This document shows positions 6,823 to 25,726 of a DNA stretch of 64,000 nucleotides, in pieces. A model generated the notes under the pieces. It saw only the letters and a program-made list of their open reading frames with translations. It was not told the DNA's origin and searched no databases. Positions within the stretch are counted from its first letter, which is position 1. Each line of letters starts with the position of its first letter. This DNA comes from Patescibacteria group bacterium (GTDB lineage Bacteria; Patescibacteriota; Minisyncoccia; Phycocordibacterales; UBA9973): NCBI GenBank assembly GCA_038063915.1, contig JBBTUE010000001.1, forward strand, positions 107,905 to 171,904, given 5' to 3'. Made by a program: the position numbers and the translations under genes.

Positions 6823-6856
6823 CCCATATACAATCTAGGTGTGATATAATCTCAAT

Positions 6857-11273: not shown

Positions 11274-13058
11274 ATGAATACAGAAGCCCGCCAGTGTCAG
11301 AACTGCAAAAACTCCTTTAATATTGAGCCGGATGACTTTTCGTTCTACGAGAAAATGAAGGTTCCACCACCGACTTTTTGCCCAATGTGCCGTACGCAGA
11401 GGCGTTGGGCTTTTCGGAATGAACGTGGGCTCTATAAAAGAAAGTGTGATTTCAGCGGCAAAGATATATTTTCAATGTACTCACCCGATTCTCCTGTGAA
11501 AGTTTATGATAGAGATATTTGGATATCAGATGCATGGGATCCAATTGACTACGGTCGCGATATTGATTGGTCAAAACCATTTTTATCTCAGCTTTACGAA
11601 CTTATGCTCGAAGTACCATTTAAGTCAAATAATGTTATACGTGGCGTTAATAGTGATTACTCTAACAATGCGACTGATCCAAAGAACTGTTATCTTGTTT
11701 TCAACACAACTGTTCCTGAAGACTGCATGTATTCAAATGGACTTAATTATTCTAGGGAATGCGTGGATGTTTCTCATGTATCAAAATGCGAAAGCTGCTA
11801 TCAGAGCTTCTGGTTAGGGTCATGTTATCGATCACATTATTGTTCGCAGTGTGTAGATTCTAGTGATTTGTGGTTTTGTAAGGATTGTCAGGGTTGTATG
11901 AACTGTTTCGGATCAGTGAACCTTAGAAATAAAAATTACCATTTCTTCAATGAGCCACTTTCAAAAGAAGATTATGAGGAAAAAGTAAAAGAGTATAAAC
12001 TACATACTAAAAATGGTATAGAAAAAGCCCTAGAAGAGACACGTAAGTTTTGGAAAAAGTTTCCCAACAAGAATCACCAAGGCATCAAGAATCTTGACTG
12101 CACTGGATCGTACGTTAGTAATTCAAAAAACGTAAAAGATTCATTCCTTGTTCGTGAGAGTGAAAATATGCGCTACTGTCAATATATACAAGAGACCCCT
12201 GGATCAAAGGACTGTTATGACTATTCTAACTGGGGCTGCGGGGCAGAACTCGTGTATGAGTCTATTTCTTGTGGCAATGGAGTTCAGAACCTAAAATTTA
12301 CATGGCTGACTCAAGAGAGTACCCATGATGCCGAGTATACTATTGCATGCTTTGGATCAAGCTACTTATTTGGTTGCGTTGGGATTCGCAAGAAAGAATA
12401 CTGCATACTAAACAAGCAATACACAAAAGATGAGTATCTGGATCTTATTGAAAAAATAAAGAAACACATGAATGATCTGCCTTATACTGATAAGAATGGA
12501 AATATTTACAGGTACGGGGAGTTCTTGCCTGCAGAAATGAGTCCATGGGCTTACAATGAAACAATTGCTCAAGAGTATTTTCCTTTAACAAAAGAAGAAG
12601 CCATTGCAAAAGGTTATAGATGGCGTGACCCGGATGTAAAAGACTATAAACCTACTTTACTTATAGAAAACGTTCCTACTGATATTACCAATGCAGATGA
12701 TTCTATCACGAAAGAAATAATTGAATGTGCCCACAGAGGGGAATGCAATCAGGGTTGTACAAAAGCCTTTCGTATAATTGCTGACGAATTCGCTTTCTAT
12801 AAAAAGATAGGAGTACCTCTGCCGATACTTTGCCCTGCCTGTCGTACTATGGAAAGACTAAAATTAAGACTCGGAGTTGAATTATATGATGGTACATGTA
12901 TGTGCGGTGGGGTAGAATCTAAAGATGGAATTTATAAAAATCAAGTTACACACCCACATAGCGATGCACAATGCCATAATAATTTTAAAACTGGATTTAA
13001 GCCAGGCAGAGGCGATGTAGTTTACTGTGAATCTTGTTATCAACAAGAAGTGGATTAG
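11274..13058 (+). CDS. cysteine-rich zinc-ribbon-repeat protein, paralog 1 (unrecognised family)
   Basis: 594 aa, no signal peptide, many Cys. N-terminal module CQNCKNSFNIEPDDFSFYEKMKVPPPTFCPMCRTQRRWAFRNERGLYKRKC repeated near C-terminus (CTKAFRIIADEFAFYKKIGVPLPILCPACRTMERLKLR...YCESCYQQEV). Collinear with 13062, 14789 and 23946 ORFs. Confidence 0.7.
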   Translation: MNTEARQCQNCKNSFNIEPDDFSFYEKMKVPPPTFCPMCRTQRRWAFRNERGLYKRKCDFSGKDIFSMYSPDSPVKVYDRDIWISDAWDPIDYGRDIDWSKPFLSQLYELMLEVPFKSNNVIRGVNSDYSNNATDPKNCYLVFNTTVPEDCMYSNGLNYSRECVDVSHVSKCESCYQSFWLGSCYRSHYCSQCVDSSDLWFCKDCQGCMNCFGSVNLRNKNYHFFNEPLSKEDYEEKVKEYKLHTKNGIEKALEETRKFWKKFPNKNHQGIKNLDCTGSYVSNSKNVKDSFLVRESENMRYCQYIQETPGSKDCYDYSNWGCGAELVYESISCGNGVQNLKFTWLTQESTHDAEYTIACFGSSYLFGCVGIRKKEYCILNKQYTKDEYLDLIEKIKKHMNDLPYTDKNGNIYRYGEFLPAEMSPWAYNETIAQEYFPLTKEEAIAKGYRWRDPDVKDYKPTLLIENVPTDITNADDSITKEIIECAHRGECNQGCTKAFRIIADEFAFYKKIGVPLPILCPACRTMERLKLRLGVELYDGTCMCGGVESKDGIYKNQVTHPHSDAQCHNNFKTGFKPGRGDVVYCESCYQQEVD

Positions 13059-13061
13059 TTT

Positions 13062-14750
13062 ATGGAAACAAAGACTTGTGTCAAATGCAAAAATAGTTTC
13101 ATTATTGAACCAGAAGATAAGGACTTATATTCTCGGCTTGGTGTACCGATTACGAATAAATGCTTTGAGTGTCGGAAGCAACATCTCTATGCATTCCGAA
13201 ATGAAAGAAAGTTGTACAGACGCAATTGTGATCTATGTAGTAAAAGTACAGTCACTATATATTCTAAAGACAAACCCTTCAAAGTCTATTGCCCACCTTG
13301 TTTTTGGAGTGATAATTGGGATGCCAAGGATTACGCACAAGAGTTTGATTTCAGTAAACCATTCTTTGAACAATTTAGAGAATTACAACTAAAGGCTCCT
13401 CGCATGGCTCTTCTTACTAAAAATAGTGTTAATTCAGAATATACTAACCACTCAGGAGAGAATAAAAACTGCTATCTATCTTTTGCTACATTTGCCTCAG
13501 AGAATGTTCTTCATTCGTCTGATATTTGGAATAGGGGACAAGATATTATGGACTGCGCTATGATTACCGATTCGGCGACACTTTGTTATGAATGTGTTGA
13601 CTGTGAGAAGATAAACAGTTGCCAGTTCTGCTTGTTAGTCAAAGAATCAAACAATTGTTCCTATTCTTATGACCTGAAGAATTGCAACGACTGCTTCTTA
13701 TGCTACAACCTAAGGAATAAAAGTTTCTGCATTCTCAATAAACAATATACTCGAGAGCAATATCAAGAAGAGATCAAGAAATACGATCTCGCATCTAGAT
13801 CATCTAGGAAGCTCCTATGGGAGGCCTTTATTGATATGATGACTAATTTTGCAGTTCATAAGGCGTATATTATAGAAAAATCTAGTAATTGCACTGGCAA
13901 TATGCTCTATAATTCTAAGAATACAAAATATTACTTTGATGCCGAAGACGTGGAAGATTGTAGATATTCAGTTCAATGCCCTAATATGAAAGACTCTATA
14001 GATAACTATCACGTCGGCTTGCCAGTCACCCAATATGTTTATAGTAGCCACGGAGTTATTCGTTCGACAAACATTACTTGCTGTCATCTTAGTTACGACA
14101 ATACATATATTTCATATTGTGATAGTTGTCAGAATAGTAATAATTTATTTGGATGTGTTTCGATTAAGAAGGGTTCGTATTGTATTTTGAATAAGCAGTA
14201 CTCGAAAGAAGAATATGAAGAGTTAGTGCCTAAAATAAAAGAACATATGAAAAGTACTGGAGAGTGGGGCTCATTCTTTCCGATCAGTATCTCCCCAGTC
14301 TGTTACAATGAAACTCTTGCGCAGATACACATGCCACTTTCAAAAGACGAAGCACTCTCTCAAGGATTCACTTGGCAAGATGATTTAGAAGGTATATATG
14401 GAAAAGAAACTATAAAAGAAATACCCGACCTTATTAGTGATGTCGACGAGTCTATGGTAAAAGAAGTTTTAAAATGTTCAAACTGTAGTAAAAATTATAA
14501 TATAATCCAAGCAGAACTAGAACTTTACCAAAGAATGAAAATTCCAGTTCCCGATCAATGCCCCGACTGTCGCTACATCAGCAGGATATCTTTGCGATTA
14601 CCATATAAACTCTGGAGTAGGTCATGTATGTGTGATAAATCAAATCACGGACACCAAGGTAAATGTCCGAGTGAGTTTGAAACAAGTTACGCACCAGAGC
14701 GACCAGAGATTATATATTGTGAACAGTGTTATCAACAAGAGGTAATTTAG
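13062..14750 (+). CDS. cysteine-rich zinc-ribbon-repeat protein, paralog 2
   Basis: 562 aa; shares blocks CxKCKNSFxIEPED, DxWDxxDYxxxFDFSKPFFEQ, KNCYLxF, YCILNKQYSKEEYEELVPKIKEHM, YNETLAQ, C-terminal CPDCR...SCMC...EFETSYAPERPEIIYCEQCYQQEV with its neighbours; 4 nt after paralog 1. Confidence 0.7.
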   Translation: METKTCVKCKNSFIIEPEDKDLYSRLGVPITNKCFECRKQHLYAFRNERKLYRRNCDLCSKSTVTIYSKDKPFKVYCPPCFWSDNWDAKDYAQEFDFSKPFFEQFRELQLKAPRMALLTKNSVNSEYTNHSGENKNCYLSFATFASENVLHSSDIWNRGQDIMDCAMITDSATLCYECVDCEKINSCQFCLLVKESNNCSYSYDLKNCNDCFLCYNLRNKSFCILNKQYTREQYQEEIKKYDLASRSSRKLLWEAFIDMMTNFAVHKAYIIEKSSNCTGNMLYNSKNTKYYFDAEDVEDCRYSVQCPNMKDSIDNYHVGLPVTQYVYSSHGVIRSTNITCCHLSYDNTYISYCDSCQNSNNLFGCVSIKKGSYCILNKQYSKEEYEELVPKIKEHMKSTGEWGSFFPISISPVCYNETLAQIHMPLSKDEALSQGFTWQDDLEGIYGKETIKEIPDLISDVDESMVKEVLKCSNCSKNYNIIQAELELYQRMKIPVPDQCPDCRYISRISLRLPYKLWSRSCMCDKSNHGHQGKCPSEFETSYAPERPEIIYCEQCYQQEVI

Positions 14751-14788: not shown

Positions 14789-16543
14789 ATGGAAGACAAA
14801 AACGAAAAAAGAATATGTCAAAATTGTAAACAAGATTTTACTATCGAGCCGGACGATTTTTCATTCTATGAAAAAATGAAGGTCCCAGCGCCTACTTTTT
14901 GTCCAGAATGTCGATTTGTTCGACGTCTTAACTCAAGAAATGAACGCTCACTTTTTAAGACTATATGTGGCCTATGTAATAAAAGTACAATAACTATGTA
15001 TAATCCAGTTGCTGGGTATATTGTATATTGCTCATCGTGTTACCAGAGTGATGCATGGGATCCCTTATCTTATGGTAAAGAATATGATTTCTCTAGACCT
15101 TTTTTTGAACAATATAGGGATTTATTGCAAATAGTACCCAAGAGGGCTGTTCATGGGATTAACCCTGGTAGAAATACAGAATATTCGAACTATATTTTCA
15201 ATTCTACCGATGTGTTTCTTGCGTATTCAGTAGTGAGATCGGAAGGAATTTATCATAGTCGAGGAGTAGATATATCAAAACAATGTATTGATTGTACTAA
15301 TATTAAAGAGTGTGAATCTTGTTATCAGATAGTTCAGGGAACAAGAAATTATGGTTCAAAATTCTTGGTTGATTCTAGAGACTGCATTGATTCTCAATAT
15401 TTATATGACTGCGCGAATTGTTCTAGTTGCTTTATGTCGTCTAACCTCAGAAATAAACAGTATGTCTATAAAGGCGAGCAACTAACAAAAGAAGTATATC
15501 AAGAAGCAATAAAAAAATATAACATTGGTTCTTTTAAAGTAAAGACTCAATTGATGGCTGAGTTTAAAGAACTTATTGAAAACAAAACAATACATCGCTT
15601 TGCCAGAATTTTTAAATCAGTAGATTCAACTGGTGATTATATTGAAAATTCAAAAAGTGTTAAAAAATCATTTGAAGTTTTTGAAGCTGAGAACGCTAAG
15701 TATGGTTGGAGGTTAACAGATGGACCTACTGATATGTATGACGTAGCTGGTTCAGGTAAAAGTGAGTTATTATACGAAGCAGTTGGAGCCGCCTGGGGTT
15801 CAAGAAATTCATCATTCTTTATCGTAGGAAATGCGACAATTGATTCAAGTTATTGTGATTACTGTCTCAATGTCTCAAATATTTTTGGATCTGTAAGTTT
15901 AAGAAATGTTCAGTATGTAATTTTAAATAAACAATATACAAAAGAGGAGTATGAGATACTTATACCGAAAATCATCGAACATATGAAAACTATGCCCTAT
16001 ATAGATCAAAAAGAGAGAATATATAGTTATGGTGAATTCTTCCCTCAAATATGTGTTGCACACGCATACAATGAAAGTTTAGCTCAAGAATATTTTCCAT
16101 TGTCTAAAGAGGAAGTTATTAGTAGAGGGTACTTATGGAGAGATCCTGAGATAAAGAATAATCAATCAACTATTGCGGTACAAGGAATACCTGACTCTAT
16201 AGAGGATATTCCTGACGACTTTATAAAGGAAGCCATAGAATGTATGCATAATAGTGTTGCTTGTGATCATCAGTGTACAAAAGCATTTAGGTTAAATTCT
16301 GACGAATTAGTTTACTTAAAAAAATGGAATCTACCAATACCACGATTATGTCCAAATTGTAGACACTGCGAGCGATTAGATTTTAGAACTCCTGCAAAGC
16401 TCTGGCATAGGTCCTGTATGTGCGACCTGAAGGGGCATTTTCATGGGGATGGGCATTGTGAGGTGGAATTTGAGACGAGTTATGCGCCCGAGCGGCCTGA
16501 AAAGGTCTACTGCGAGCGATGCTACCAAGCAGAAGTACTATAA
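14789..16543 (+). CDS. cysteine-rich zinc-ribbon-repeat protein, paralog 3
   Basis: 584 aa; same collinear blocks (CQNCKQDFTIEPDDFSFYEKMKVPAPTFCPECR, ILNKQYTKEEYEILIPKIIEHM, CTKAFRLNSDELVYLKKWNLPIPRLCPNCR, YCERCYQAEV). Confidence 0.7.
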   Translation: MEDKNEKRICQNCKQDFTIEPDDFSFYEKMKVPAPTFCPECRFVRRLNSRNERSLFKTICGLCNKSTITMYNPVAGYIVYCSSCYQSDAWDPLSYGKEYDFSRPFFEQYRDLLQIVPKRAVHGINPGRNTEYSNYIFNSTDVFLAYSVVRSEGIYHSRGVDISKQCIDCTNIKECESCYQIVQGTRNYGSKFLVDSRDCIDSQYLYDCANCSSCFMSSNLRNKQYVYKGEQLTKEVYQEAIKKYNIGSFKVKTQLMAEFKELIENKTIHRFARIFKSVDSTGDYIENSKSVKKSFEVFEAENAKYGWRLTDGPTDMYDVAGSGKSELLYEAVGAAWGSRNSSFFIVGNATIDSSYCDYCLNVSNIFGSVSLRNVQYVILNKQYTKEEYEILIPKIIEHMKTMPYIDQKERIYSYGEFFPQICVAHAYNESLAQEYFPLSKEEVISRGYLWRDPEIKNNQSTIAVQGIPDSIEDIPDDFIKEAIECMHNSVACDHQCTKAFRLNSDELVYLKKWNLPIPRLCPNCRHCERLDFRTPAKLWHRSCMCDLKGHFHGDGHCEVEFETSYAPERPEKVYCERCYQAEVL

Positions 16544-16580
16544 TAATTAAAAGTTACGAATTACTAATTAAGAATAAGGC

Positions 16581-16620
16581 AAAAATCACACAAAAATTTA
16601 CGAATTTTTGTGTGATTTTT
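16581..16620. terminator. perfect 18-bp inverted repeat with 4-nt loop (AAAAATCACACAAAAATT-TACG-AATTTTTGTGTGATTTTT); likely terminator of the paralog operon, or a regulatory palindrome
   Basis: Exact reverse-complement arms read directly from the sequence; followed by T-rich tract; lies between paralog-3 stop and nrdJ. Confidence 0.5.
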
Positions 16621-16749
16621 AATATCGAATTTTTTGTCAATTTTTGTCCCAAAATACCCTCTAGTAGAACGACCTTTTAGAATTTTTTGCTTTGGGTGTT
16701 GACGAAGTTGCGAGCTTAAGACATAGTTGTGGATTTGTCTGTTATGCAC

Positions 16750-16779
16750 TTGTGGCAAATCTTCTTATGAGAGTATAAT
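16750..16779 (+). promoter_or_regulatory. candidate promoter for nrdJ (TTGTGG - 18 nt - TATAAT)
   Basis: Consensus TATAAT at ~16774-16779 with a -35-like hexamer 18 nt upstream, ~50 nt before nrdJ start. Confidence 0.3.
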
Positions 16780-16827: not shown

Positions 16828-19161
16828 ATGCCTTCCAAAAAAAGAGTCGTAAGTAAGAAAAAAGTTAGTGTAAAAAAAGTTTCACCCCAAGCGACGAAAC
16901 TCGCTATCAAGAATGATTTTATTAAAAGCGTTCAAAAAAGAGATGGTGCAATTGCTCCGTTTGATATTGAAAAGATCGTGAATGCTATTAATAAAGCTAT
17001 GCTTGCGTGTAATGAAGGCTCAATTAAGGAAGCAGAGATGGTTTCCAATAGGGTATTCATGGAGCTAGTGAAAATTGCCAAGCGACATAAGAGTTTTATC
17101 CCAACAGTTGAAGGTATTCAAGATGCAGTTGAGCAAGAATTAATGCTTTCTGACTATACTAAAACTTCCAAACATTATATTTTATATCGTGAAGAGCGTG
17201 CGAGGTTGCGTTCTCATAGTATCACTGTACCCGATCGTGTAAAAAAACTTACAGATGAGAGTAAAAAGTATTTTAGGAATCCACTTTCTGAATTTGTTTA
17301 CTATAGAAGTTACGCAAAATGGATTGAAGAAGAAGGAAGACGTGAGACATGGATCGAGACTATTGATAGATACATAGACTTCATGAAAAAGAATCTTGGT
17401 AACAAGTTGAAGGAAGCTGAGTATAAAGAAATCCGCGAAGCAATACTCAAACAAGAATCCATGCCATCGATGAGGTTACTCCAGTTCGCAGGACCTGCTG
17501 CAGAGAAGACAAATGTTTGCGCATACAACTGTTCGTTCATTGCACCGTCTCGCTTCGAAGATTTCGGAGAGATTATTTATATCTCTATGTGTGGTACAGG
17601 AGTAGGGTTCTCTGTTGAAAGTAAAAATATTCAAGCCCTCCCTCAGATTAAAAATCAATCTGGTAAAAAGCTAGCGGCGTATGTCGTGCCTGATACAAAG
17701 GAAGGTTGGGCGGATGCGTTTGTTATTGGAATGAAAACTTGGTTTGATGGTAATGATATTAATTTTGATTTCTCTCAACTTCGTCCAGCAGGTGCGAGAC
17801 TAAAAATAATGGGAGGTAAAAGTTCAGGTCCGAAGCCACTTATGGACTTACTAGGATTCACCCGTGAACGTATACTAAAGCGTCAGGGTAGACACCTACG
17901 CAATATAGATGCACATGACATAATCTGTAAGATTGGAGAGTGTGTAGTCTCAGGAGGAGTGCGCCGCAGTGCTCTTATCTCACTATCTGACTTGGATGAT
18001 CAAGATATGCGCGATGCAAAGAATGGCCAGTTTTGGAACTCTGAAGGCCAGCGCATGCTTGCCAACAACTCGGCAGTTTATAATACAAAGCCTACAGAGA
18101 CTGAATTTCTAAGGGAATGGATTGCCCTTATGGAGTCAGGCTCAGGGGAGCGAGGCATATTTAATCGTGGTGCACTTACTACATCTTTACCAAAACGCAG
18201 ATTAGAAGTTTCAAAAGATTATATAGGAGAGATGGGGACAAATCCTTGCGGTGAGATAGTGCTCAGGTCAAGACAATTTTGTAATCTTTCAGAAGTCGTT
18301 GCGCGAGCCGAAGATACAGAAGAGACGCTAATGAAGAAGATCCGTATCGCGACAATTCTCGGTACTTATCAGTCGACTCTTACAAAGTTTGGATATCTTT
18401 CAAAAGAATGGCAAGAGAATTGTGAAGCAGAAAGATTACTCGGTGTATCTGTCACCGGACAGTGGGATTCAAAGTTTGCACGTGATCCGGAGGTACTAAA
18501 GAAACTCAAGAATGAAGCAATTCGTGTGAATAAAATATATGCAAAAAGATTTGGAGTAAATGAATCTACCTGTATTACTTGCGTAAAACCATCTGGTACG
18601 GTATCTCAGACAGTTGATTGTGCATCAGGCATGCATCCACGTCATGCCCCTTACTATATTCGCCGCGTCCGTATTTCTGCCACGGATTCATTATTTAAAA
18701 TGATGAAAGATCAAGGGGTACCTTACTATCCAGAAATAGGTCAGGCACATGACAGTGCAAATACTTTTGTTTTGGAATTTCCAATGAAAGCGCCTCACGA
18801 TGCAATATGTAAAGATGATATATCTGCGATAGATCAGCTTGAACACTGGAAAGTAGTAAAAGTTAATTTCACAGAACACAATCCTTCGGTGACTGTATCA
18901 GTCGGAGAAAATGAATGGATAAAAGTAGCTCATTGGCTTTACCAGAACTGGGAGATTGTCGGAGGGCTATCATTTTTACCTAGAAGTAACCATGTCTATC
19001 AGCTTGCTCCGTACGAAGCAATAAGCGAGAAGACTTACAGAGAACTTGCTAAAAAAATGCCAGATTTTGATTTCTCTAAGATTGTTACTTATGAAGTAAG
19101 AGATGAAACAGAAGTCAAAAGAGAGCTTGCTTGTGTAGCAGGAGTCTGTGATATAGTCTAA
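16828..19161 (+). CDS. nrdJ: ribonucleotide reductase, class II (adenosylcobalamin-dependent) with N-terminal ATP-cone
   Basis: ATP-cone (VQKRDGAIAPFDIEKIVNAINKA), catalytic NPCGEIVLRSRQFCNLSEV loop typical of NrdJ, C-terminal Cys pair (CVAGVC); no NrdB/NrdF-like gene adjacent. Confidence 0.7.
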   Translation: MPSKKRVVSKKKVSVKKVSPQATKLAIKNDFIKSVQKRDGAIAPFDIEKIVNAINKAMLACNEGSIKEAEMVSNRVFMELVKIAKRHKSFIPTVEGIQDAVEQELMLSDYTKTSKHYILYREERARLRSHSITVPDRVKKLTDESKKYFRNPLSEFVYYRSYAKWIEEEGRRETWIETIDRYIDFMKKNLGNKLKEAEYKEIREAILKQESMPSMRLLQFAGPAAEKTNVCAYNCSFIAPSRFEDFGEIIYISMCGTGVGFSVESKNIQALPQIKNQSGKKLAAYVVPDTKEGWADAFVIGMKTWFDGNDINFDFSQLRPAGARLKIMGGKSSGPKPLMDLLGFTRERILKRQGRHLRNIDAHDIICKIGECVVSGGVRRSALISLSDLDDQDMRDAKNGQFWNSEGQRMLANNSAVYNTKPTETEFLREWIALMESGSGERGIFNRGALTTSLPKRRLEVSKDYIGEMGTNPCGEIVLRSRQFCNLSEVVARAEDTEETLMKKIRIATILGTYQSTLTKFGYLSKEWQENCEAERLLGVSVTGQWDSKFARDPEVLKKLKNEAIRVNKIYAKRFGVNESTCITCVKPSGTVSQTVDCASGMHPRHAPYYIRRVRISATDSLFKMMKDQGVPYYPEIGQAHDSANTFVLEFPMKAPHDAICKDDISAIDQLEHWKVVKVNFTEHNPSVTVSVGENEWIKVAHWLYQNWEIVGGLSFLPRSNHVYQLAPYEAISEKTYRELAKKMPDFDFSKIVTYEVRDETEVKRELACVAGVCDIV

Positions 19162-19166
19162 ATTAT

Positions 19167-19694
19167 ATGAAAAGGAATTGGATTAAATATACAATTGCAT
19201 TTATAGCAGTCCTAGGCTTACGGCTGATACCATTTAGAGCTCCAAATGTGGAGCCTGTAATGTCAGCGATTATGCCCTTTGGCCGAGTCTATGGCAAACT
19301 ATCTGCTTTCTTATTTGGAGCTATGAGTATTGTCATATACGATAGTTTAACCTCAGGATTAGGCGTCTGGAGCGCTATTACAGCCGTTGCTTATGGACTT
19401 GTTGGACTTGGCGCGGGGTATTACTTCAAAAATAGGACAGGATGGAGAAATTATGCTCTCTTTGCTATCTTTACGACTATACTTTATGACGTCGTGACTG
19501 GGCTTACCCTCGGGCCACTCTTTTTCGATCAAACACTTTCCAACGCCTTGGTAGGTCAGATTCCTTTTACCCTACTGCACTTGCTTGGCAACGTAGTATT
19601 TGCTATAGTGCTTTCACCGGTGATAGAAACGTGGATTAGAAAAGAGTCAAAAGTTGTCGTGCCTGTTACTAGAAAAGTCGCATTGAGTAGTTAG
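19167..19694 (+). CDS. small polytopic membrane protein (ECF S-component-like size/topology), co-transcribed with nrdJ
   Basis: 175 aa, ~5-6 hydrophobic helices; starts 5 nt after nrdJ stop; no recognisable named motif. Confidence 0.45.
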   Translation: MKRNWIKYTIAFIAVLGLRLIPFRAPNVEPVMSAIMPFGRVYGKLSAFLFGAMSIVIYDSLTSGLGVWSAITAVAYGLVGLGAGYYFKNRTGWRNYALFAIFTTILYDVVTGLTLGPLFFDQTLSNALVGQIPFTLLHLLGNVVFAIVLSPVIETWIRKESKVVVPVTRKVALSS

Positions 19695-19704
19695 TGTATT
19701 TTTA

Positions 19705-19870
19705 AAATTCAACCTATTGTGTTTGGAAGTGAGGTGAGATTCCTCCACTGTGCCGCAACGGTAAAGCTCTATAAAGAGACGAGTCCGATCTTAACACACT
19801 AGCGTATCCCGAGCAGGAGATAGATGTATTTATACATCTACCCAAATCTTCTGCTCACACAGGAGTTTTT
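19705..19870 (+). ncRNA. candidate cobalamin (B12) riboswitch with expression platform
   Basis: GGAAGTGAGGTGAGATTCCTCCACTGTGCCGCAACGGTAAAGC matches the conserved cobalamin aptamer core (GGGAA..GGUG.AA.UCC...CUG.CCCGCAACGGUAA). P1-like pairing TTGTGTT(~19717)/AACACA(~19793). B12-box-like GAGCAGGAGA at ~19811-19820. Downstream hairpin TAGATGTA-TTTA-TACATCTA inside a longer stem GAGCAGGAGA/TCTTCTGCTC, then AGGAG RBS and ATG 19881. Confidence 0.6.
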
Positions 19871-19880
19871 TTATTTTATT

Positions 19881-20312
19881 ATGAAAAACAAGAAATACTA
19901 CATATTTATAACAGTACTCGCGCTATCACTTACATTTGGTTGTGCACATTTTGCGTTGGCAAAAAATACTAAATACGTTGTAAAGAAACCTATTGCCAAG
20001 GTGAAGGCCATAAAAATAGAAAATCTTGTCACATTAGATGTGCTAGGTAGTACGTATAAAGTAAGCATTAAAGACAAGGATACTGCATACGATGCAATGG
20101 TTGGTCTTCAGAACAATAAAAATAATAATTTTTCCTTTCGTTCCAAAAATTATTCAAGTCTAGGAAACTTTATTTATGAGATAAATGGGATAAAAGGCAC
20201 CCCTGGTCGTTATTGGATTTATTATATTAATAACAAGAAGGCAACACTTGGTGTTTCTAAGTATGTCCTCAAATCTGGGGATATAATTTCTTGGAAACAA
20301 GAAGGAATTTAA
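19881..20312 (+). CDS. secreted small protein resembling the transcobalamin/intrinsic-factor beta-domain (DUF4430-like); start moved from track 19824 to 19881
   Basis: From ATG 19881 the product begins MKNKKYYIFITVLALSLTFGCAHFALA (signal peptide, possible lipoprotein Cys). C-terminus GRYWIYYINNKKATLGVSKYVLKSGDIISWK fits the yWxLL...G..Y.lk.GD.I..r.W motif of the B12-binding beta-domain. 19824-19880 overlaps the riboswitch platform. Confidence 0.5.
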   Translation: MKNKKYYIFITVLALSLTFGCAHFALAKNTKYVVKKPIAKVKAIKIENLVTLDVLGSTYKVSIKDKDTAYDAMVGLQNNKNNNFSFRSKNYSSLGNFIYEINGIKGTPGRYWIYYINNKKATLGVSKYVLKSGDIISWKQEGI

Positions 20313-20315
20313 TTC

Positions 20316-22388
20316 ATGAAAAAACTAATCATACTATTAATAAGTTTCGCAAGTATTTCTTTTTTCAGTGTTGCTTCTGCTGATACAACAATCCACTTGG
20401 ATGTAGTGACATCTACTGGCTCACTCTACAACCAAGATATCACAGTCGCCCCTTGTGATAGTGACAATGCAGGCACTATGGCCGTCACTGCATACTGTGC
20501 AGTCTTGCAATCAGGCTTGGCTAACGATTGGTCGTGGTTTGGATCTGATGCGTTTTTAAATTCCATTGATACAAAAGTTAATAATGATAATAATAATGGT
20601 ATTTATTGGGGTTGGTTTGCTAATCTTGAACTCGGTCAAACAGCTCTCAATAAATACGTACTCATGGAAGGTGATTCCATCCTTATAAATTACGACATTA
20701 ACCCATTAAAAATTGCAGTTGATAATACTAATCCATCTGTCGGCAGTAGTATTAAGTTTACTGTTATGTCGTTTGGTTTTGACTCTAGTTGGAACCCAGC
20801 TTGGTCTCCTGTTGTTGGGGGGAAAATTGTTATAGGGCCAGATACTCTAGATCTTGATTTAGATGGCACGTATTCATTTATAGTTATAGATACAACCCCA
20901 CTGATAGTAAAAGGACAAGCTATCGGATTTCTAGAAACTAAAGAATTAGTTATAACCCCAACTGTTTCTTTAGATGTCACAGCGCCTATAATTACCTTGA
21001 TTGGTGATACGACAGAATCTATAAACGTAGGCAGTGATTATATAGAAAAAGGTGCAACTGCTACAGACGATATAGATGGAGATATAACTAGTAAAATAGT
21101 AATTACTGGTAATGTTGATACTTCTAAAGTAGGTAGCTATGATATTTTATTTGATGTGAGTGATTTGTTAGGGAATAAAGCAAACACAGTAACTCGTACA
21201 GTAAATGTTATAAATTCTGGGGGTGGAGGTGGTGGACCAACTCTTTCTACTTTATCTATACCCCAAGCGACACTCTTTCTTGCAAACAACCAGGATATAA
21301 ATGGATCTTTCATAGACTCTCTATATACCGACTGGGTAGCCATAGCGGTAGGTTCACTTGGGTCTTCAGGAGATATTATGAAAGCGAAGATATCTGAGTA
21401 TATGAAGATGAATCCACTTATGTCCTCTGTTATTACAGATAATGAACGCCGTGCTATGGCTCTAATGTCGCTAGGTATCAATCCGTACTCTGGGACAAGT
21501 GTAGATTATATAAATAAAATCGTATCTTCGTATGACGGAACTCAATTTGGAGACAATACACTATTTAATGACGACATCTTTGCTTTAATAGTACTTCAAA
21601 AGGCAGGTTACATCTCCACAGATACAATGATAGTGAAAGATATTGAATATATATTATCATATCAATCTCCTGATGGATCGTGGGGAAGTATTGATATGAC
21701 TGGTGCTGCGTTGCAAGCACTCAGTAACTTTACCGATATTGCTGGCGTGCAATCTTCAATATTAAAAGGGGAGAACTATTTAATAAGTACGCAGCAAGTT
21801 GACGGGGGATTCTATAATTCTTCTTCAACGAGTTGGGCACTCCAAGCTCTATCTAGTAATCCATCTTTCTCATCAGGGGTTGCTCGAGCTGATGATTACC
21901 TTGCTAAGTTACAACAAGCTGATGGGGGAGTGGAGTTGTCGACAAGCATAATCGAGAATCGTATCTGGGCTACTGCATATGCTATACCAGCTGCACTCCA
22001 CAAGACTTGGTCAAATATTCTACAATCATTTCCAAAACCCATCATATCAACTGGTGGAGGTGGAACTTCGACTATATTAATACCAGAAGTGGAATCTTTA
22101 ACTCAAAAATTAGTCAAAGAAGAAGAGAAGATAGATGAAAAAAAGATAGAGGAGTTAGAAGTAATAAATAAAGACTCCTTAATAAAACCAAAACTAAAAA
22201 ATACCCAGAAGGTAACTAAGCCCAAAGTTGTTGCTAAAGCTAACCCTGTACCGAACACCTCAAATGTCTTAGTCGCAAACGCATCCTCTTCTTTAGAAGC
22301 TGAAACGCCATCTAGGTCATTTTTCAGTAGGATAGTGGGGACAATCAAAGTCCCGTTTATATGGCTTTGGGACAAGCTCGGATTTTGA
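20316..22388 (+). CDS. secreted multi-domain surface protein with Ig-like (DUF5011-type) domain and prenyltransferase/terpene-cyclase-like alpha/alpha-toroid repeats
   Basis: Signal peptide; DUF5011-like segment PIITLIGDTTESINVGSDYIEKGATATDDIDGDITSKIVITGNVDTSKVGSYDILFDVSDLLGN; Gly7 linker; repeated Q/DGxW-type motifs (YQSPDGSWGS, QQVDGGFYNS, QQADGGVEL) of alpha-alpha toroid proteins; K-rich tail and hydrophobic C-terminus. Confidence 0.55.
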   Translation: MKKLIILLISFASISFFSVASADTTIHLDVVTSTGSLYNQDITVAPCDSDNAGTMAVTAYCAVLQSGLANDWSWFGSDAFLNSIDTKVNNDNNNGIYWGWFANLELGQTALNKYVLMEGDSILINYDINPLKIAVDNTNPSVGSSIKFTVMSFGFDSSWNPAWSPVVGGKIVIGPDTLDLDLDGTYSFIVIDTTPLIVKGQAIGFLETKELVITPTVSLDVTAPIITLIGDTTESINVGSDYIEKGATATDDIDGDITSKIVITGNVDTSKVGSYDILFDVSDLLGNKANTVTRTVNVINSGGGGGGPTLSTLSIPQATLFLANNQDINGSFIDSLYTDWVAIAVGSLGSSGDIMKAKISEYMKMNPLMSSVITDNERRAMALMSLGINPYSGTSVDYINKIVSSYDGTQFGDNTLFNDDIFALIVLQKAGYISTDTMIVKDIEYILSYQSPDGSWGSIDMTGAALQALSNFTDIAGVQSSILKGENYLISTQQVDGGFYNSSSTSWALQALSSNPSFSSGVARADDYLAKLQQADGGVELSTSIIENRIWATAYAIPAALHKTWSNILQSFPKPIISTGGGGTSTILIPEVESLTQKLVKEEEKIDEKKIEELEVINKDSLIKPKLKNTQKVTKPKVVAKANPVPNTSNVLVANASSSLEAETPSRSFFSRIVGTIKVPFIWLWDKLGF

Positions 22389-22401
22389 TATAATAATAAA
22401 C

Positions 22402-22962
22402 ATGAAATCAAAATTTATAGCACTGGTAGTTGTGGTAATATTGTTCGTCGTTGGGCTAGGGGTTTTTATGAATAAGAATACAAGCATTGGTAAATATGAT
22501 GATTTTGCCAAAAGCTTGACTACACAGGGAGCCAAATTTTATGGTGCCTTTTGGTGCCCACACTGCTTGGCCGAGAAGGCCCTGTTTGGAAGTTCAAAGC
22601 GATATTTACCATATGTTGAGTGCTCTAATCCTGACAAAACTCAAGTTCAAATATGTATAGATAATAAAATAGAGAATTATCCAACTTGGACATTTAGAGA
22701 CGGTATAACTTTACTTTCAGAGAGTACTCCTACAATCTGTGAAATTAGTCCTGGCAAAGATGGAGAAGAACCTATATGTGAGCAAGTAGCTTCGAAATAT
22801 TATCGTACCTGGATATTCCCAGAGCATCGGTTATCTATAAAAAGTCCGACTGACCCTATTGTCAAAGATGGTGTTTGGAAATTCGAAGTTGGTTCCAAAG
22901 CAACGGGGGAGATACCTCTTGAATTCTTGGCACAACAGATAGGATATACACTTCCACAATAA
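22402..22962 (+). CDS. membrane-anchored thioredoxin-like protein (VKOR/DsbB partner type)
   Basis: N-terminal TM anchor then FYGAFWCPHC CxxC motif typical of Trx-like domains partnered or fused with VKOR. Confidence 0.6.
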   Translation: MKSKFIALVVVVILFVVGLGVFMNKNTSIGKYDDFAKSLTTQGAKFYGAFWCPHCLAEKALFGSSKRYLPYVECSNPDKTQVQICIDNKIENYPTWTFRDGITLLSESTPTICEISPGKDGEEPICEQVASKYYRTWIFPEHRLSIKSPTDPIVKDGVWKFEVGSKATGEIPLEFLAQQIGYTLPQ

Positions 22963-22963
22963 T

Positions 22964-23512
22964 ATGCCAGCATACATAGAAACATTGAATCAGTTTTTAT
23001 CACTTGGCATAATCGGTTTGCAAGTTATAATTGTGGCCTTGCTTTTAAATCTTGTTTTTTTTAGATCACATACAAATCAAATATTAATTTTCTTTAAGAA
23101 AAATACTTTTACATTTGGATTCATGGTTGCTCTCTGCTCGACCCTTTTTAGTCTATTCTATTCAAATGTTGTTGGCTTCCCACCGTGTGAACTTTGCTGG
23201 ATAAATCGAATATTTATTTATCCGCAAGTCATACTTTTTGGTATGGAGTTGTACAAGCGAGACAAAGCTATAATTGATCAGAGTCTAGTCCTCGCAGTGT
23301 TTAGTGCTCTGACATCAATACTACATGTGTATGTCGAGAATGGAGGAGCGTCGTCACTTGCATGTGCGACAGGGGGACCGGCTACAATCTCATGTGCGAC
23401 CCTATATGTCTATGAATTTGGTTATATTACTATTCCTTTGATGGCGCTCACTGCTGCAGTATTTACCATCTTAATTTTAGTTAATTATAAGTACATGTCT
23501 AAGGCTAAATAA
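22964..23512 (+). CDS. disulfide bond formation protein, DsbB/BdbC family
   Basis: 4 TM helices, first periplasmic loop PCELCWINRIFIYPQ (CxxC) and second loop Cys pair (ACATGGPATISCA), as in Bacillus BdbC. Confidence 0.6.
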   Translation: MPAYIETLNQFLSLGIIGLQVIIVALLLNLVFFRSHTNQILIFFKKNTFTFGFMVALCSTLFSLFYSNVVGFPPCELCWINRIFIYPQVILFGMELYKRDKAIIDQSLVLAVFSALTSILHVYVENGGASSLACATGGPATISCATLYVYEFGYITIPLMALTAAVFTILILVNYKYMSKAK

Positions 23513-23945: not shown

Positions 23946-25691
23946 ATGGAAGCTCAAAATAAAATATGCCAGAATTGCAAAAATTCCTTCGTCATCGAAC
24001 CAGAGGATTTTTCTTTCTACGAAAAGATAAAAGTTCCTCCACCGACATTTTGCTCTGAGTGTAGTTTGATACGACGTATGGCGTTTCGTAACGAAAGAAC
24101 TCTATATCGACGCAAATGCCAAGCTCCAGGACATGGTGAAGATATGCTCAGTGTCTTTTCACCAGACAAAGAAGCAACGATATATTGTCACTCCGCGTGG
24201 TGGGGTGATTCTTGGGATGGATTGAGCTACGGACGCGACTACGATTTCTCTAGGAATTTTTTCGAACAAATAAATCATCTCTGGAGAGAAGTTCCAGACA
24301 TAGGGCTATTTAATATAAATCCAGTGAATAGTGATTATTGTAGTATTACAGAGGGAAACAAGAATTGTTATTTAGTTATTGGGGGAGATTTTAATGAAGA
24401 TTCACTCTATTCCGCGTTTATATTTAATTCTAAATTTTTAGTTGATTGTTACTGGGTTTCAAAAAGCGAATGGAATTATGAGACCATTGATTGTATTTCA
24501 TGTTCACGATTGTTATTTAGTCGCTATTGCGAAGGATGCTATGGAAGTACTTTTATGTTTAACTGCCGCAATTGTCATGACTGCTTTGGGTGCGTTAATT
24601 TATCAAATAGATCGTATTGCATTTTTAACGAACAATACTCTAAGGAAGAATATCATAATAAATTAAAAGAGTTCAATATATCATCATGGAAAGAACTACA
24701 AAAAATTAAAGCGACATTTACTGAATTTAGTAGAAAGTTTCCAAGGCGCTTTGCCAAGATTATCAAGTCGGTTGATGTAACAGGGGACGATATAGAAGAA
24801 TCAAAGAATTGCAAAAACTCCTTCTCGATTTTTGGAGGAGCCGAAGATTCAAAAAATCTATGGCTTGTTTACTCGTCAGTAAAGAATTGCTATAACATAG
24901 ATCACTCAGGACTCTCTTCAACTGATTGCTACGAAGTATCAAGCGCATATCCTGGAAACAAAGTCCTTTTTTCACGTTTTATCTTTGAAGGTTTTAATAT
25001 TGAATACAGCTATAATTGCCATAACTGTTCAAATTTATTTGGTTGTATTGGATTACGTAACAAGCAATACTGTATCTTAAACAAACAATATTCTAAAGAG
25101 GATTATGAGGTCCTAATTCAAAAAATAAAAGCTCATATGAATGATAATAAATATATTGACCAAGGCGGAAGGGTATATGGCTATGGAGAATTTTTCCCGA
25201 TAGAGATATCGCCATTTCTTTATAATGAAACAGTAGCTCAAGAACTCAAGCCAATATCTAGAGATGAAGCAAATGCAAGTGGCATTAGATTAATGGAAAG
25301 TGTAGATAGGAATTACAAGATTACAAAGAATATGGAAGACCTTACTGACACAATTGAAAAAGTTGAGGACTCAATACTAGATGACGTGATAAGTTGTGCA
25401 CATAAAGGCAGCTGTGCACATGAGTGTGCAACTGCATTCAAAATTACAAAAGCTGAACTCGAGTTCTATAGAAATTTGAAGTTACCATTGCCACACTTAT
25501 GTCCAAATTGTAGACATTACGAGAGAATAAGCCAAAGAAATCCAATGAAACTCTGGCATAGGTCGTGTATGTGTGAAAAGAAAGGGCATATCCATGAGGC
25601 AAAATGCACAGTAGAATTTGAGACTAGCTATTCTCCGGAGCGACCAGAGATTATATACTGCGAAAAGTGCTATCAACAAGAAGTAATCTAG
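23946..25691 (+). CDS. cysteine-rich zinc-ribbon-repeat protein, paralog 4 (distal copy)
   Basis: 581 aa; N-term CQNCKNSFVIEPEDFSFYEKIKVPPPTFCSECSLIRRMAFRNERTLYRRKC, central YCILNKQYSKEDYEVLIQKIKAHM, C-term CATAFKITKAELEFYRNLKLPLPHLCPNCRHYER...EFETSYSPERPEIIYCEKCYQQEVI; collinear with 11274-16543 paralogs. Confidence 0.7.
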   Translation: MEAQNKICQNCKNSFVIEPEDFSFYEKIKVPPPTFCSECSLIRRMAFRNERTLYRRKCQAPGHGEDMLSVFSPDKEATIYCHSAWWGDSWDGLSYGRDYDFSRNFFEQINHLWREVPDIGLFNINPVNSDYCSITEGNKNCYLVIGGDFNEDSLYSAFIFNSKFLVDCYWVSKSEWNYETIDCISCSRLLFSRYCEGCYGSTFMFNCRNCHDCFGCVNLSNRSYCIFNEQYSKEEYHNKLKEFNISSWKELQKIKATFTEFSRKFPRRFAKIIKSVDVTGDDIEESKNCKNSFSIFGGAEDSKNLWLVYSSVKNCYNIDHSGLSSTDCYEVSSAYPGNKVLFSRFIFEGFNIEYSYNCHNCSNLFGCIGLRNKQYCILNKQYSKEDYEVLIQKIKAHMNDNKYIDQGGRVYGYGEFFPIEISPFLYNETVAQELKPISRDEANASGIRLMESVDRNYKITKNMEDLTDTIEKVEDSILDDVISCAHKGSCAHECATAFKITKAELEFYRNLKLPLPHLCPNCRHYERISQRNPMKLWHRSCMCEKKGHIHEAKCTVEFETSYSPERPEIIYCEKCYQQEVI

Positions 25692-25726
25692 GCTCTAAGA
25701 GTGGGTGATATGATATACTATATAGT

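Follow-up and report, generated by a model that had tools for sequence, protein, structure and literature searches.

Introduction

In characterised cobalamin riboswitches, a kissing loop links the aptamer to the expression platform by pairing CCG in loop L5 with CGG in loop L13, and bulges within this contact are known (PMC10653944; PMC7367189). Several described systems resemble the element analysed here, which lies at 19699-19859 on the + strand of a 64,000-nucleotide (nt) stretch of a Patescibacteria group bacterium (GCA_038063915.1, contig JBBTUE010000001.1, positions 107,905 to 171,904; hereafter the window). In Cbl-IIb riboswitches, the joining segment J1/3 is short and paired or mismatched, and a short hairpin serves as the extension of helix P6 (PMC7367189). 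The env8 aptamer is compact, belongs to class II, and contains a bulged nucleotide in L13 (as cited in PMC10653944). In the repressing riboswitch of Priestia megaterium metE, the kissing loop stabilises a weak P13 helix; left free, the 3' side of P13 and the terminator 5' arm make an antiterminator (PMC10653944). On the protein side, Burroughs et al. (2007, PMC1796856) predicted B12 binding by secreted bacterial proteins in which transcobalamin-like beta-grasp domains are paired with toroids. In the literature we searched, there was nothing relevant on cobalamin riboswitches in Patescibacteria or the candidate phyla radiation (CPR).

We consider it likely that the window element is a cobalamin riboswitch of the compact, class-II-like adenosylcobalamin (AdoCbl) family RF01482 and switches transcription OFF. 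With B12 in ample supply, it would most likely stop transcription of two genes for secreted, transcobalamin-like B12-capture proteins. The RNA itself is ordinary in kind, a routine member of a very widespread riboswitch class that a standard Rfam scan detects.

Family membership and aptamer structure

Scanning the entire window against all 4227 Rfam families returned two matches above the gathering score, one being a tRNA and the other RF01482, "AdoCbl (Cobalamin/B12) riboswitch aptamer", the sole riboswitch match. The RF01482 match spans 19699-19859 (+) and model positions 1-149, the model's full length; its score is 58.5 bits (gathering score 50 bits), and its E-value (E), computed for the whole window, is 3.7e-8. 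A permissive rescan of 19600-19960 again placed RF01482 first and suppressed two lower-scoring families of the same clan (CL00101). The riboswitch region was also more stable than 200 of 200 shuffles (z -3.3), and the RF01482 match is not due to chance. A sequence-only reading of this DNA had proposed a candidate cobalamin riboswitch here and named a covariance-model search as the check; the significant cobalamin-model match (58.5 vs 50 bits) bears that proposal out. The strings it quoted all lie on the + strand where it placed them, including the core GGAAGTGAGGTGAGATTCCTCCACTGTGCCGCAACGGTAAAGC at 19725-19767 and TTGTGTT at 19718-19724, which pairs with AACACA at 19793-19798.

The aptamer and its leader comprise the following features:

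19714-19802, + strand: aptamer, with P1/P3, P4, P5, and P6 bearing one short hairpin extension
19696-19713, + strand: A/U-rich conserved 5' leader GTATTTTTAAAATTCAAC, corresponding to unpaired positions of RF01482 and kept across loci
19714-19722, + strand: 5' strand of the P1/P3 helix, CTATTGTGT, pairing with 19794-19802 (Rfam alignment)
19725-19728, + strand: junction GGAA, part of UUGGAAGU, matching the RF01482 consensus UGGAAGU
19729-19746, + strand: P4 hairpin GUGAGG-UGAGAUU-CCUCC with the conserved GGUGAnAUUCC loop (Rfam alignment, covariation)
19749-19757, + strand: P5 stem (U-A, G-C) with loop L5, UGCCG, at 19751-19755 (Rfam alignment, covariation)
19759-19787, + strand: P6, CGG 19759-19761 with CCG 19785-19787, plus one hairpin extension pairing 19767-19769 with 19776-19778 (Rfam alignment, RNAalifold, covariation)
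19781-19793, + strand: GAGUCCGAUCUUA, the P6 3' strand and J6/3 at the B12-box position, aligning to the RF01482 consensus AAGUCAGGUCUUU
19794-19802, + strand: 3' strand of the P1/P3 helix, ACACACTAG (Rfam alignment, covariation)

Like RF01482/Cbl-IIb (PMC7367189), the window element has a four-way P3-P6 core with GGAAG, GGUGAnAUUCC, CACUG, and AGUCCG, a single short P6 hairpin, and a continuous P1-P3 helix with one mismatch (U-C at 19717/19799). It likewise sits in the 5' leader of a B12-related gene. In layout, the architecture thus fits Cbl-IIb as described by Chan and Mondragon (PMC7367189). It differs from the described family in four respects that run through its clade. L5 reads UGCCG rather than the reported consensus UCCCG; the L13 hexaloop CGAGCA is invariant and would pair with L5 as a kissing loop of 5 bp in which one A is bulged; P13 has only 3-5 bp; and the place of the model's 3' stem-loop is taken by P13 together with an antiterminator and terminator. 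A cobalamin aptamer core is common to env8HyCbl, E. coli btuB, and the window element, and the L5-L13 kissing loop of the first two is predicted for the third.

The suggestion of a compact class-II-type variant agrees with these results, in that RF01482 is the best family of the clan, the P6 extension is a single short hairpin, and P1-P3 is one continuous helix. The window element does not show the RF00174-type class I pattern (a large P6 extension P7-P11 and a B12 box in J6/3): its P6 carries a single short hairpin at 19767-19778, and RF01482 outscores the other clan members. The B12-box-like string that had been pointed out, GAGCAGGAGA (19811-19820), is not a B12 box. It sits 3' of P1, outside the aptamer junction, and the Rfam model instead puts GAGTCCGATCTT (also written GAGUCCGAUCUU), at 19781-19792, in the J6/3 slot.

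Conservation among relatives

Aligning homologues of the DUF4430 protein encoded directly downstream led to 80 loci fetched from species-representative genomes. Nearly all are labelled Patescibacteria, Paceibacteria, Nomurabacteria, Magasanikbacteria or similar, or uncultured bacteria, with a few Gammaproteobacteria and Bacteroidetes. Of the first 18 loci, 10 had an RF01482 match above threshold just 5' of the gene. A clade-specific covariance model, R1, was built from 28 sequences and detected the element in 71 of the 80 loci, one copy each, always on the gene strand and immediately upstream of the DUF4430 gene. Within the window, this model has a single match, scoring 136 bits at 19696-19826.

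Covariation supports the four-way P3-P6 junction with its conserved core. Across a model-fitted alignment of 72 sequences, 95.3% of base-pair cells hold standard pairs compared to 74.7% after shuffling, both sides have changed in 22 of 26 pairs, and the covariation score is 0.512 versus no more than 0.08 after sliding partners 1-3 columns. All nine P1/P3 pairs (9/9) show both-side changes, with 90% of cells paired. P4 contains a compensatory change from GAGG/CCUC to CUGG/CCAG and has 99% of cells paired. The P5 U-A pair becomes A-U in 18 of 72 sequences, a change visible in the raw sequences; RNAalifold offered an alternative UGCCG/CGGUA pairing, which we rejected because, unlike the Rfam P5, it shows no covariation. 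Double changes occur in 3/3 pairs of the P6 extension hairpin, and the P7-P11 extension is absent. Among unpaired segments, L5 is UGCCG in 70 of 72 sequences, G30, G31, and A33 of the junction segment UUGGAAGU are invariant columns, and AGTCCG within 19781-19793 is invariant. RNAalifold on a plain MAFFT alignment recovered P4, the P6-extension hairpin, and the small 3' hairpin (P13) independently of the model.

Some relatives carry additional structure. An extra hairpin between P1 and P13, recalling P8-P9 of B. subtilis yvrC, occurs in loci L039, L042, L049, L053, L054, L059, L071, and L075-L078. A long insertion inside the P4 loop occurs in L004, L005, L013, L014, L016, L020, L026, L030, L031, L033, L052, and L066. 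The window element has neither.

Expression platform

Three features 3' of the aptamer make up the predicted platform:

19807-19818, + strand: mini-hairpin UCC-CGAGCA-GGA, 3 bp, the putative P13, with loop L13 at 19810-19815 (conservation, RNAalifold, stem covariation)
19811-19856, + strand: antiterminator, GAGCAGGAGA (19811-19820) with UCUUCUGCUC (= TCTTCTGCTC; 19847-19856) (folding, relatives)
19848-19872, + strand: intrinsic terminator CUUCUG-CUCACA-CAGGAG (19848-19865) and U7 (19866-19872) (terminator scan)

An 11-nt box, CCCGAGCAGGA (19808-19818 in the window), follows the aptamer in about 66 of 80 loci. RNAalifold folds the box and its preceding U into the mini-hairpin, whose stem covaries around a constant CGAGCA loop: ACC/GGU in L033, GCC/GGC in L049, UUCUU/AAGAA in L063, UUCUC/GAGAA in L073, and UUUUCUU/GAGAAAA in L048. 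This loop is complementary to L5 over five pairs with A19812 bulged. The two loci with another L5 (CCCCCG) also have other P13 loops, GCGG in L067 and GGGGG in L072. We infer that the mini-hairpin is P13/L13 because it is complementary to L5 as in characterised L5-L13 kissing loops.

The string GAGCAGGAGA is the loop and 3' arm of this hairpin. Its pairing with UCUUCUGCUC has an energy of -21.0 kcal/mol, dominates the unconstrained minimum-free-energy fold, and encloses a nested hairpin, TAGATGTA-TTTA-TACATCTA at 19821-19840, that varies between loci. The terminator pairs CUUCUG (19848-19853) with CAGGAG (19860-19865), and its 5' arm is common to the antiterminator. Constrained folding with P13 forced closed and L13 unpaired flips the window fold to the terminator. 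The large hairpin had been described as a strong hairpin followed by a U-run. We rejected it as a terminator, as it lies 9 nt from the U-run, the small hairpin directly abuts U7, and relatives share the same three-strand logic; the large hairpin is the antiterminator.

This logic is conserved. Every locus has the same order 3' of P13: a variable spacer hairpin, a strand complementary to L13 plus the P13 3' arm, and a strand mimicking the box, which pairs with the second strand to form a hairpin directly abutting the T-run. A strict detector found a hairpin and T-run between box and start codon in 60 of 66 relatives, with the other six imperfect by eye. The best duplex of the box lands on the 5' arm or loop of the terminator in 59 of 60 relatives, with a median energy of -11.5 kcal/mol compared to -6.8 for shuffles (60 loci). 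For the window this duplex reaches -18.4 kcal/mol (z -5.2).

Together these features suggest a mechanism. With corrinoid bound, the L5-L13 kissing loop would hold P13 shut, leaving the strand UCUUCUGCUC free to pair with CAGGAG. The terminator at 19848-19865 would then form before U7, and transcription would end ahead of the start codon at 19881. Without ligand, the weak P13 would open, GAGCAGGAGA and UCUUCUGCUC would make the antiterminator, and RNA polymerase would read through. Read-through would express two exported proteins whose likely role is extracellular capture of B12 for the neighbouring AdoCbl-dependent ribonucleotide reductase.

The P. megaterium metE riboswitch (PMC10653944) follows the same platform logic, and the complementarity between the P13 3' side and the terminator 5' arm that defines it is found in the window. 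The dispensable structured spacer of metE has its counterpart in the nested hairpin at 19821-19840. There are also differences. The metE aptamer belongs to class I and has a long P6 extension, whereas the window aptamer is compact, and in the window the L13 loop bases are themselves part of the antiterminator strand. The metE switch controls a B12-independent enzyme, while the window switch precedes predicted capture proteins. The metE model was tested by mutagenesis, whereas ours is drawn entirely from comparison.

Several results weigh against a transcriptional OFF switch controlling B12-capture genes. The window terminator is weak, with 6 bp including one G-U and an energy of -4.8 kcal/mol, and the state combining P13 with the terminator is 8 kcal/mol less stable than the antiterminator; therefore, the switch must be kinetic or lean heavily on energy from the kissing loop and ligand. 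Taken singly, no more than 34 of 60 loci show better complementarity between box and terminator than shuffles at p <= 0.05. Because neither L5 nor L13 varies in the clade, the kissing loop is argued from complementarity and analogy rather than covariation. The covariation counts of the 72-sequence alignment are biased towards structure by the model to which it was fitted. Finally, the toroid domain of the second downstream protein fits terpene cyclases better than transcobalamin.

We considered whether control might be translational, with AGGAG at 19861-19865 acting as a ribosome-binding site hidden by a ligand-dependent CUUCUG/CAGGAG hairpin, as in E. coli btuB and env8HyCbl. In favour, the AGGAG within the small hairpin is a perfect Shine-Dalgarno core, and kissing-loop-controlled hairpins of this sort are documented (PMC10653944); control of translation could add to termination. 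However, AGGAG ends 15 nt 5' of the AUG, beyond the usual spacing, and only 8 of 59 window genes have a Shine-Dalgarno-like 4-5-mer within 25 nt, at scattered distances. Relatives read GCAGAAU, CAGAAG, GGAGGGG, and the like at this site, always followed by the T-run and with no Shine-Dalgarno motif before the ATG. Env8HyCbl and btuB hide a ribosome-binding site, whereas the window platform is an intrinsic terminator in a genome that hardly uses Shine-Dalgarno sequences. We therefore regard translational control as improbable. The sequence-only reading had placed an AGGAG ribosome-binding site after the U-run, yet CAGGAG (19860-19865) precedes the T-run (19866-19872). Its wrong spacing, its absence in relatives, and the near absence of Shine-Dalgarno motifs from the genome led us to reject it as a ribosome-binding site; it is the 3' arm of the small terminator.

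Less probable still is an ON switch activated by corrinoid, as in riboswitches of the A. halodurans cobT type. In that reading, P13 would be the long hairpin at 19811-19856, which ligand would stabilise and which would block the terminator. Its 3' arm is indeed the terminator 5' arm, a geometry described for an activating riboswitch (PMC10653944), and RF01482 aligns the long hairpin to its own 3' stem-loop. However, the loop of this terminator-sharing hairpin varies among loci and lacks complementarity to L5. The L5-complementary CGAGCA lies in its stem and, in relatives, forms the loop of a mini-hairpin that covaries independently. It would also make little physiological sense for B12 to induce B12-capture proteins. 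That the window holds a decayed copy, with a real aptamer but an antiterminator that always beats the weak terminator, is equally hard to credit: the energies (-4.8 versus -21 kcal/mol) and a terminator weaker than in most relatives point that way, but all clade-invariant positions are intact, the clade-model score (136 bits) is towards the high end of the range, the antiterminator-terminator complementarity ranks with the strongest seen (z -5.2), and U7 directly follows the stem.

Start codon and predicted regulated proteins

Under a repressing transcriptional switch, two genes would be regulated:

19881-20312, + strand: first gene, 143-aa DUF4430 protein with an N-terminal signal/anchor helix (Pfam PF14478, homologues, AlphaFold)
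20316-22388, + strand: second gene, 690-aa protein (Pfam, model, fold matches)

The start at 19881, proposed before from the sequence in place of the open reading frame start at 19824, stands: 33 homologues start at the equivalent MKNKK, and the public annotation gives the identical 143-aa product. The ATG at 19824 is not conserved and falls inside the variable nested hairpin, and we rejected it both as the start and as the start of a leader peptide. For gene calling, this locus offers a correction, in that the 19824 start is wrong and the apparent Shine-Dalgarno sequence is a terminator arm. In many window genes, a TGnTATAAT-like box precedes the ATG by 6-10 nt (e.g., 22377-22401, 25702-25726, and 6832-6856). 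Because of the position of these boxes, the sequence suggests that leaderless mRNAs are widespread in this genome.

The 143-aa protein matches PF14478 with 49.4 bits (gathering score 23.8; E 6e-13). Its AlphaFold model has a predicted local distance difference test (pLDDT) value of 82.7, and its best Foldseek match in the PDB is the beta domain of human transcobalamin (5no0) with a template modelling (TM) score of 0.82 and a root-mean-square deviation of 1.7 A. The beta domains of haptocorrin and intrinsic factor come next. As modelled, the protein has the transcobalamin beta-domain fold, a beta-grasp with the transcobalamin-type insert. The 690-aa protein consists of a signal peptide, beta domains (with a weak DUF4430 match), an immunoglobulin (Ig)-like domain, an alpha/alpha toroid (about residues 315-568 in the model), a disordered linker, and a C-terminal membrane helix. 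Its homologues often carry PF01122 (Cobalamin_bind), PF14478, and PF13243, and its model matches the folds of terpene cyclases, thioester domains, and transcobalamin (2v3n). Sequence searches against PDB chains gave marginal or irrelevant matches for both proteins and were set aside for fold comparison.

Both the beta-domain fold and the toroid of transcobalamin, intrinsic factor, and SLBB proteins (PMC1796856) are thus present among the exported proteins of the window. Unlike transcobalamin, the window has them on two polypeptides, of which the larger may carry its own beta domain, and sequence identity is 18-23%. In the literature searched, we found nothing relevant on the function of DUF4430/PF14478 and no demonstration of cobalamin binding by bacterial members of the DUF4430 group; B12 binding by the window proteins is predicted from their folds and setting.

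Gene neighbourhood and transcription

Two genes lie directly upstream of the riboswitch:

16828-19161, + strand: class II AdoCbl-dependent ribonucleotide reductase (nrdJ) with an ATP-cone domain (Pfam/NCBIfam)
19167-19694, + strand: 175-aa membrane protein resembling an energy-coupling factor (ECF) S-component (PF07155, with DUF6580 just under the cut-off)

The best NCBIfam match of the reductase is TIGR02505 RTPR (E 4.5e-84, below the equivalog cut-off), and it also matches PF21995. The S-component-like gene begins 5 nt after nrdJ, and its product may be a solitary corrinoid transporter; a look over the window's open reading frames for ATP-binding cassette (ABC)-ATPase motifs turned up no ECF A/T energising module. 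Because it is upstream of the riboswitch, this gene would not be repressed by the switch. In 33-34 of 80 loci, the riboswitch directly follows the reductase and S-component genes.

The DUF4430 and toroid genes occur together in 71 of 80 loci. Downstream, a thioredoxin-like protein is encoded in 34 and a DsbB-like protein in 27 of the 80. In the window, immediately after the two exported genes, 22402-23512 encodes a membrane-anchored thioredoxin-like (CxxC) protein and a DsbB-like protein, which could be a dedicated disulfide-forming pair for the secreted proteins. An extended -10 promoter-like site at 22367-22394 belongs to the thioredoxin-like gene itself, and hence the unit specific to the switch is probably the DUF4430 and 690-aa genes. 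The proposed two-gene secreted-protein operon is reasonable, with a conserved pair followed by a gene with its own promoter-like site, but no terminator separates the units.

Where the reductase and S-component genes are absent upstream, loci show a clear promoter, TTGACA-17-TAnAAT, about 26-31 nt ahead of P1. The window has the stop codon of the S-component gene (19692-19694) 19 nt before P1, the leader starts 2 nt past it at 19696, and a search for a sigma-70-type promoter of the riboswitch's own found none that is convincing, only a possible weak TAAAAT at 19703-19708. The riboswitch is probably read from the nrdJ promoter-like site (16752-16779) as an operon-internal attenuator, or from the weak TAAAAT. 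By analogy, the leader at 19696-19713 would be within the RNA, since transcription starts about 18-20 nt before P1 in loci without upstream genes.

The 285-nt gap between a zinc-finger gene and nrdJ contains a 19-bp perfect palindrome (TAAAAATCACACAAAAATT...) at 16580-16621, which looks like a terminator usable on both strands; the nrdJ promoter-like site is 3' of it. Four paralogues of about 560-595 aa, with CxxC pairs at both ends and weak matches to PF23477 (treble-clef zinc finger), flank the B12 cluster: three in tandem before nrdJ (11274-13058, 13062-14750, and 14789-16543) and one after cutA (23946-25691). This arrangement recurs in related loci.

Breadth of the riboswitch clade

Scanning metagenome contigs with an 18-nt L5 core, without reference to any gene, yielded at least 119 loci. 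Among the matches listed, at least 81 have the P13 box, the clade model matches 77 of the 77 loci tested, and DUF4430 is the next gene in 52 of the 95 loci with enough downstream sequence. In about 17 loci among these matches, the riboswitch instead precedes proteins of 400-590 aa, several with C-terminal CxxC pairs. These include L081, L088, L092-L094, L101/L166, L105, L117, L136, L142, L143, L150, and L159, as well as L163, L179, L183, L198, and L200:6798-8359; many of the proteins end in CxxC...CxxC motifs. A Pfam scan of six returned no match. All members of one such family, including one from Candidatus Saccharimonadales, are annotated as "hypothetical protein", and the family has a weak partial match in Verrucomicrobiae (E 4.9e-10, 9% coverage). 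A related riboswitch is upstream of a member on a 310-kb contig. The gene neighbourhood of this Pfam-less Saccharimonadia family gave no functional clue. From their position behind the riboswitch, the 400-590-aa proteins appear to be proteins of no known function under B12 control.

Discussion

Much of what this locus contains is already known: the riboswitch family is curated, the platform mechanism is published, and the gene family had been predicted to bind B12. Specific to the element are the invariant L5/L13 pair with its bulged A, the very short P13, the probably operon-internal position behind nrdJ and a solitary S-component, and the Patescibacteria setting.

Through regulation, the riboswitch ties a conserved and uncharacterised Patescibacteria gene pair, encoding beta-domain and toroid proteins, to B12. 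The pair adjoins an AdoCbl-dependent ribonucleotide reductase. The tie to B12 supports the 2007 prediction of extracellular B12-binding proteins in bacteria. These results point to B12 acquisition as a dependency of uncultivated, probably symbiotic bacteria. More tentatively, and with somewhat less than even confidence, we propose that the switch marks a Patescibacteria-specific B12-scavenging module. In this proposal, a two-piece "bacterial transcobalamin", made of a free beta-domain protein and an anchored toroid protein, would capture corrinoid from a host or neighbour and pass it through the solitary ECF-S-like transporter to the reductase. If so, borrowed B12 would gate the DNA synthesis of these reduced cells, and the riboswitch clade, marked by its invariant L5/L13, would define a B12 regulon as yet unexplored, with the Pfam-less Saccharimonadia proteins of about 450 aa among its members.

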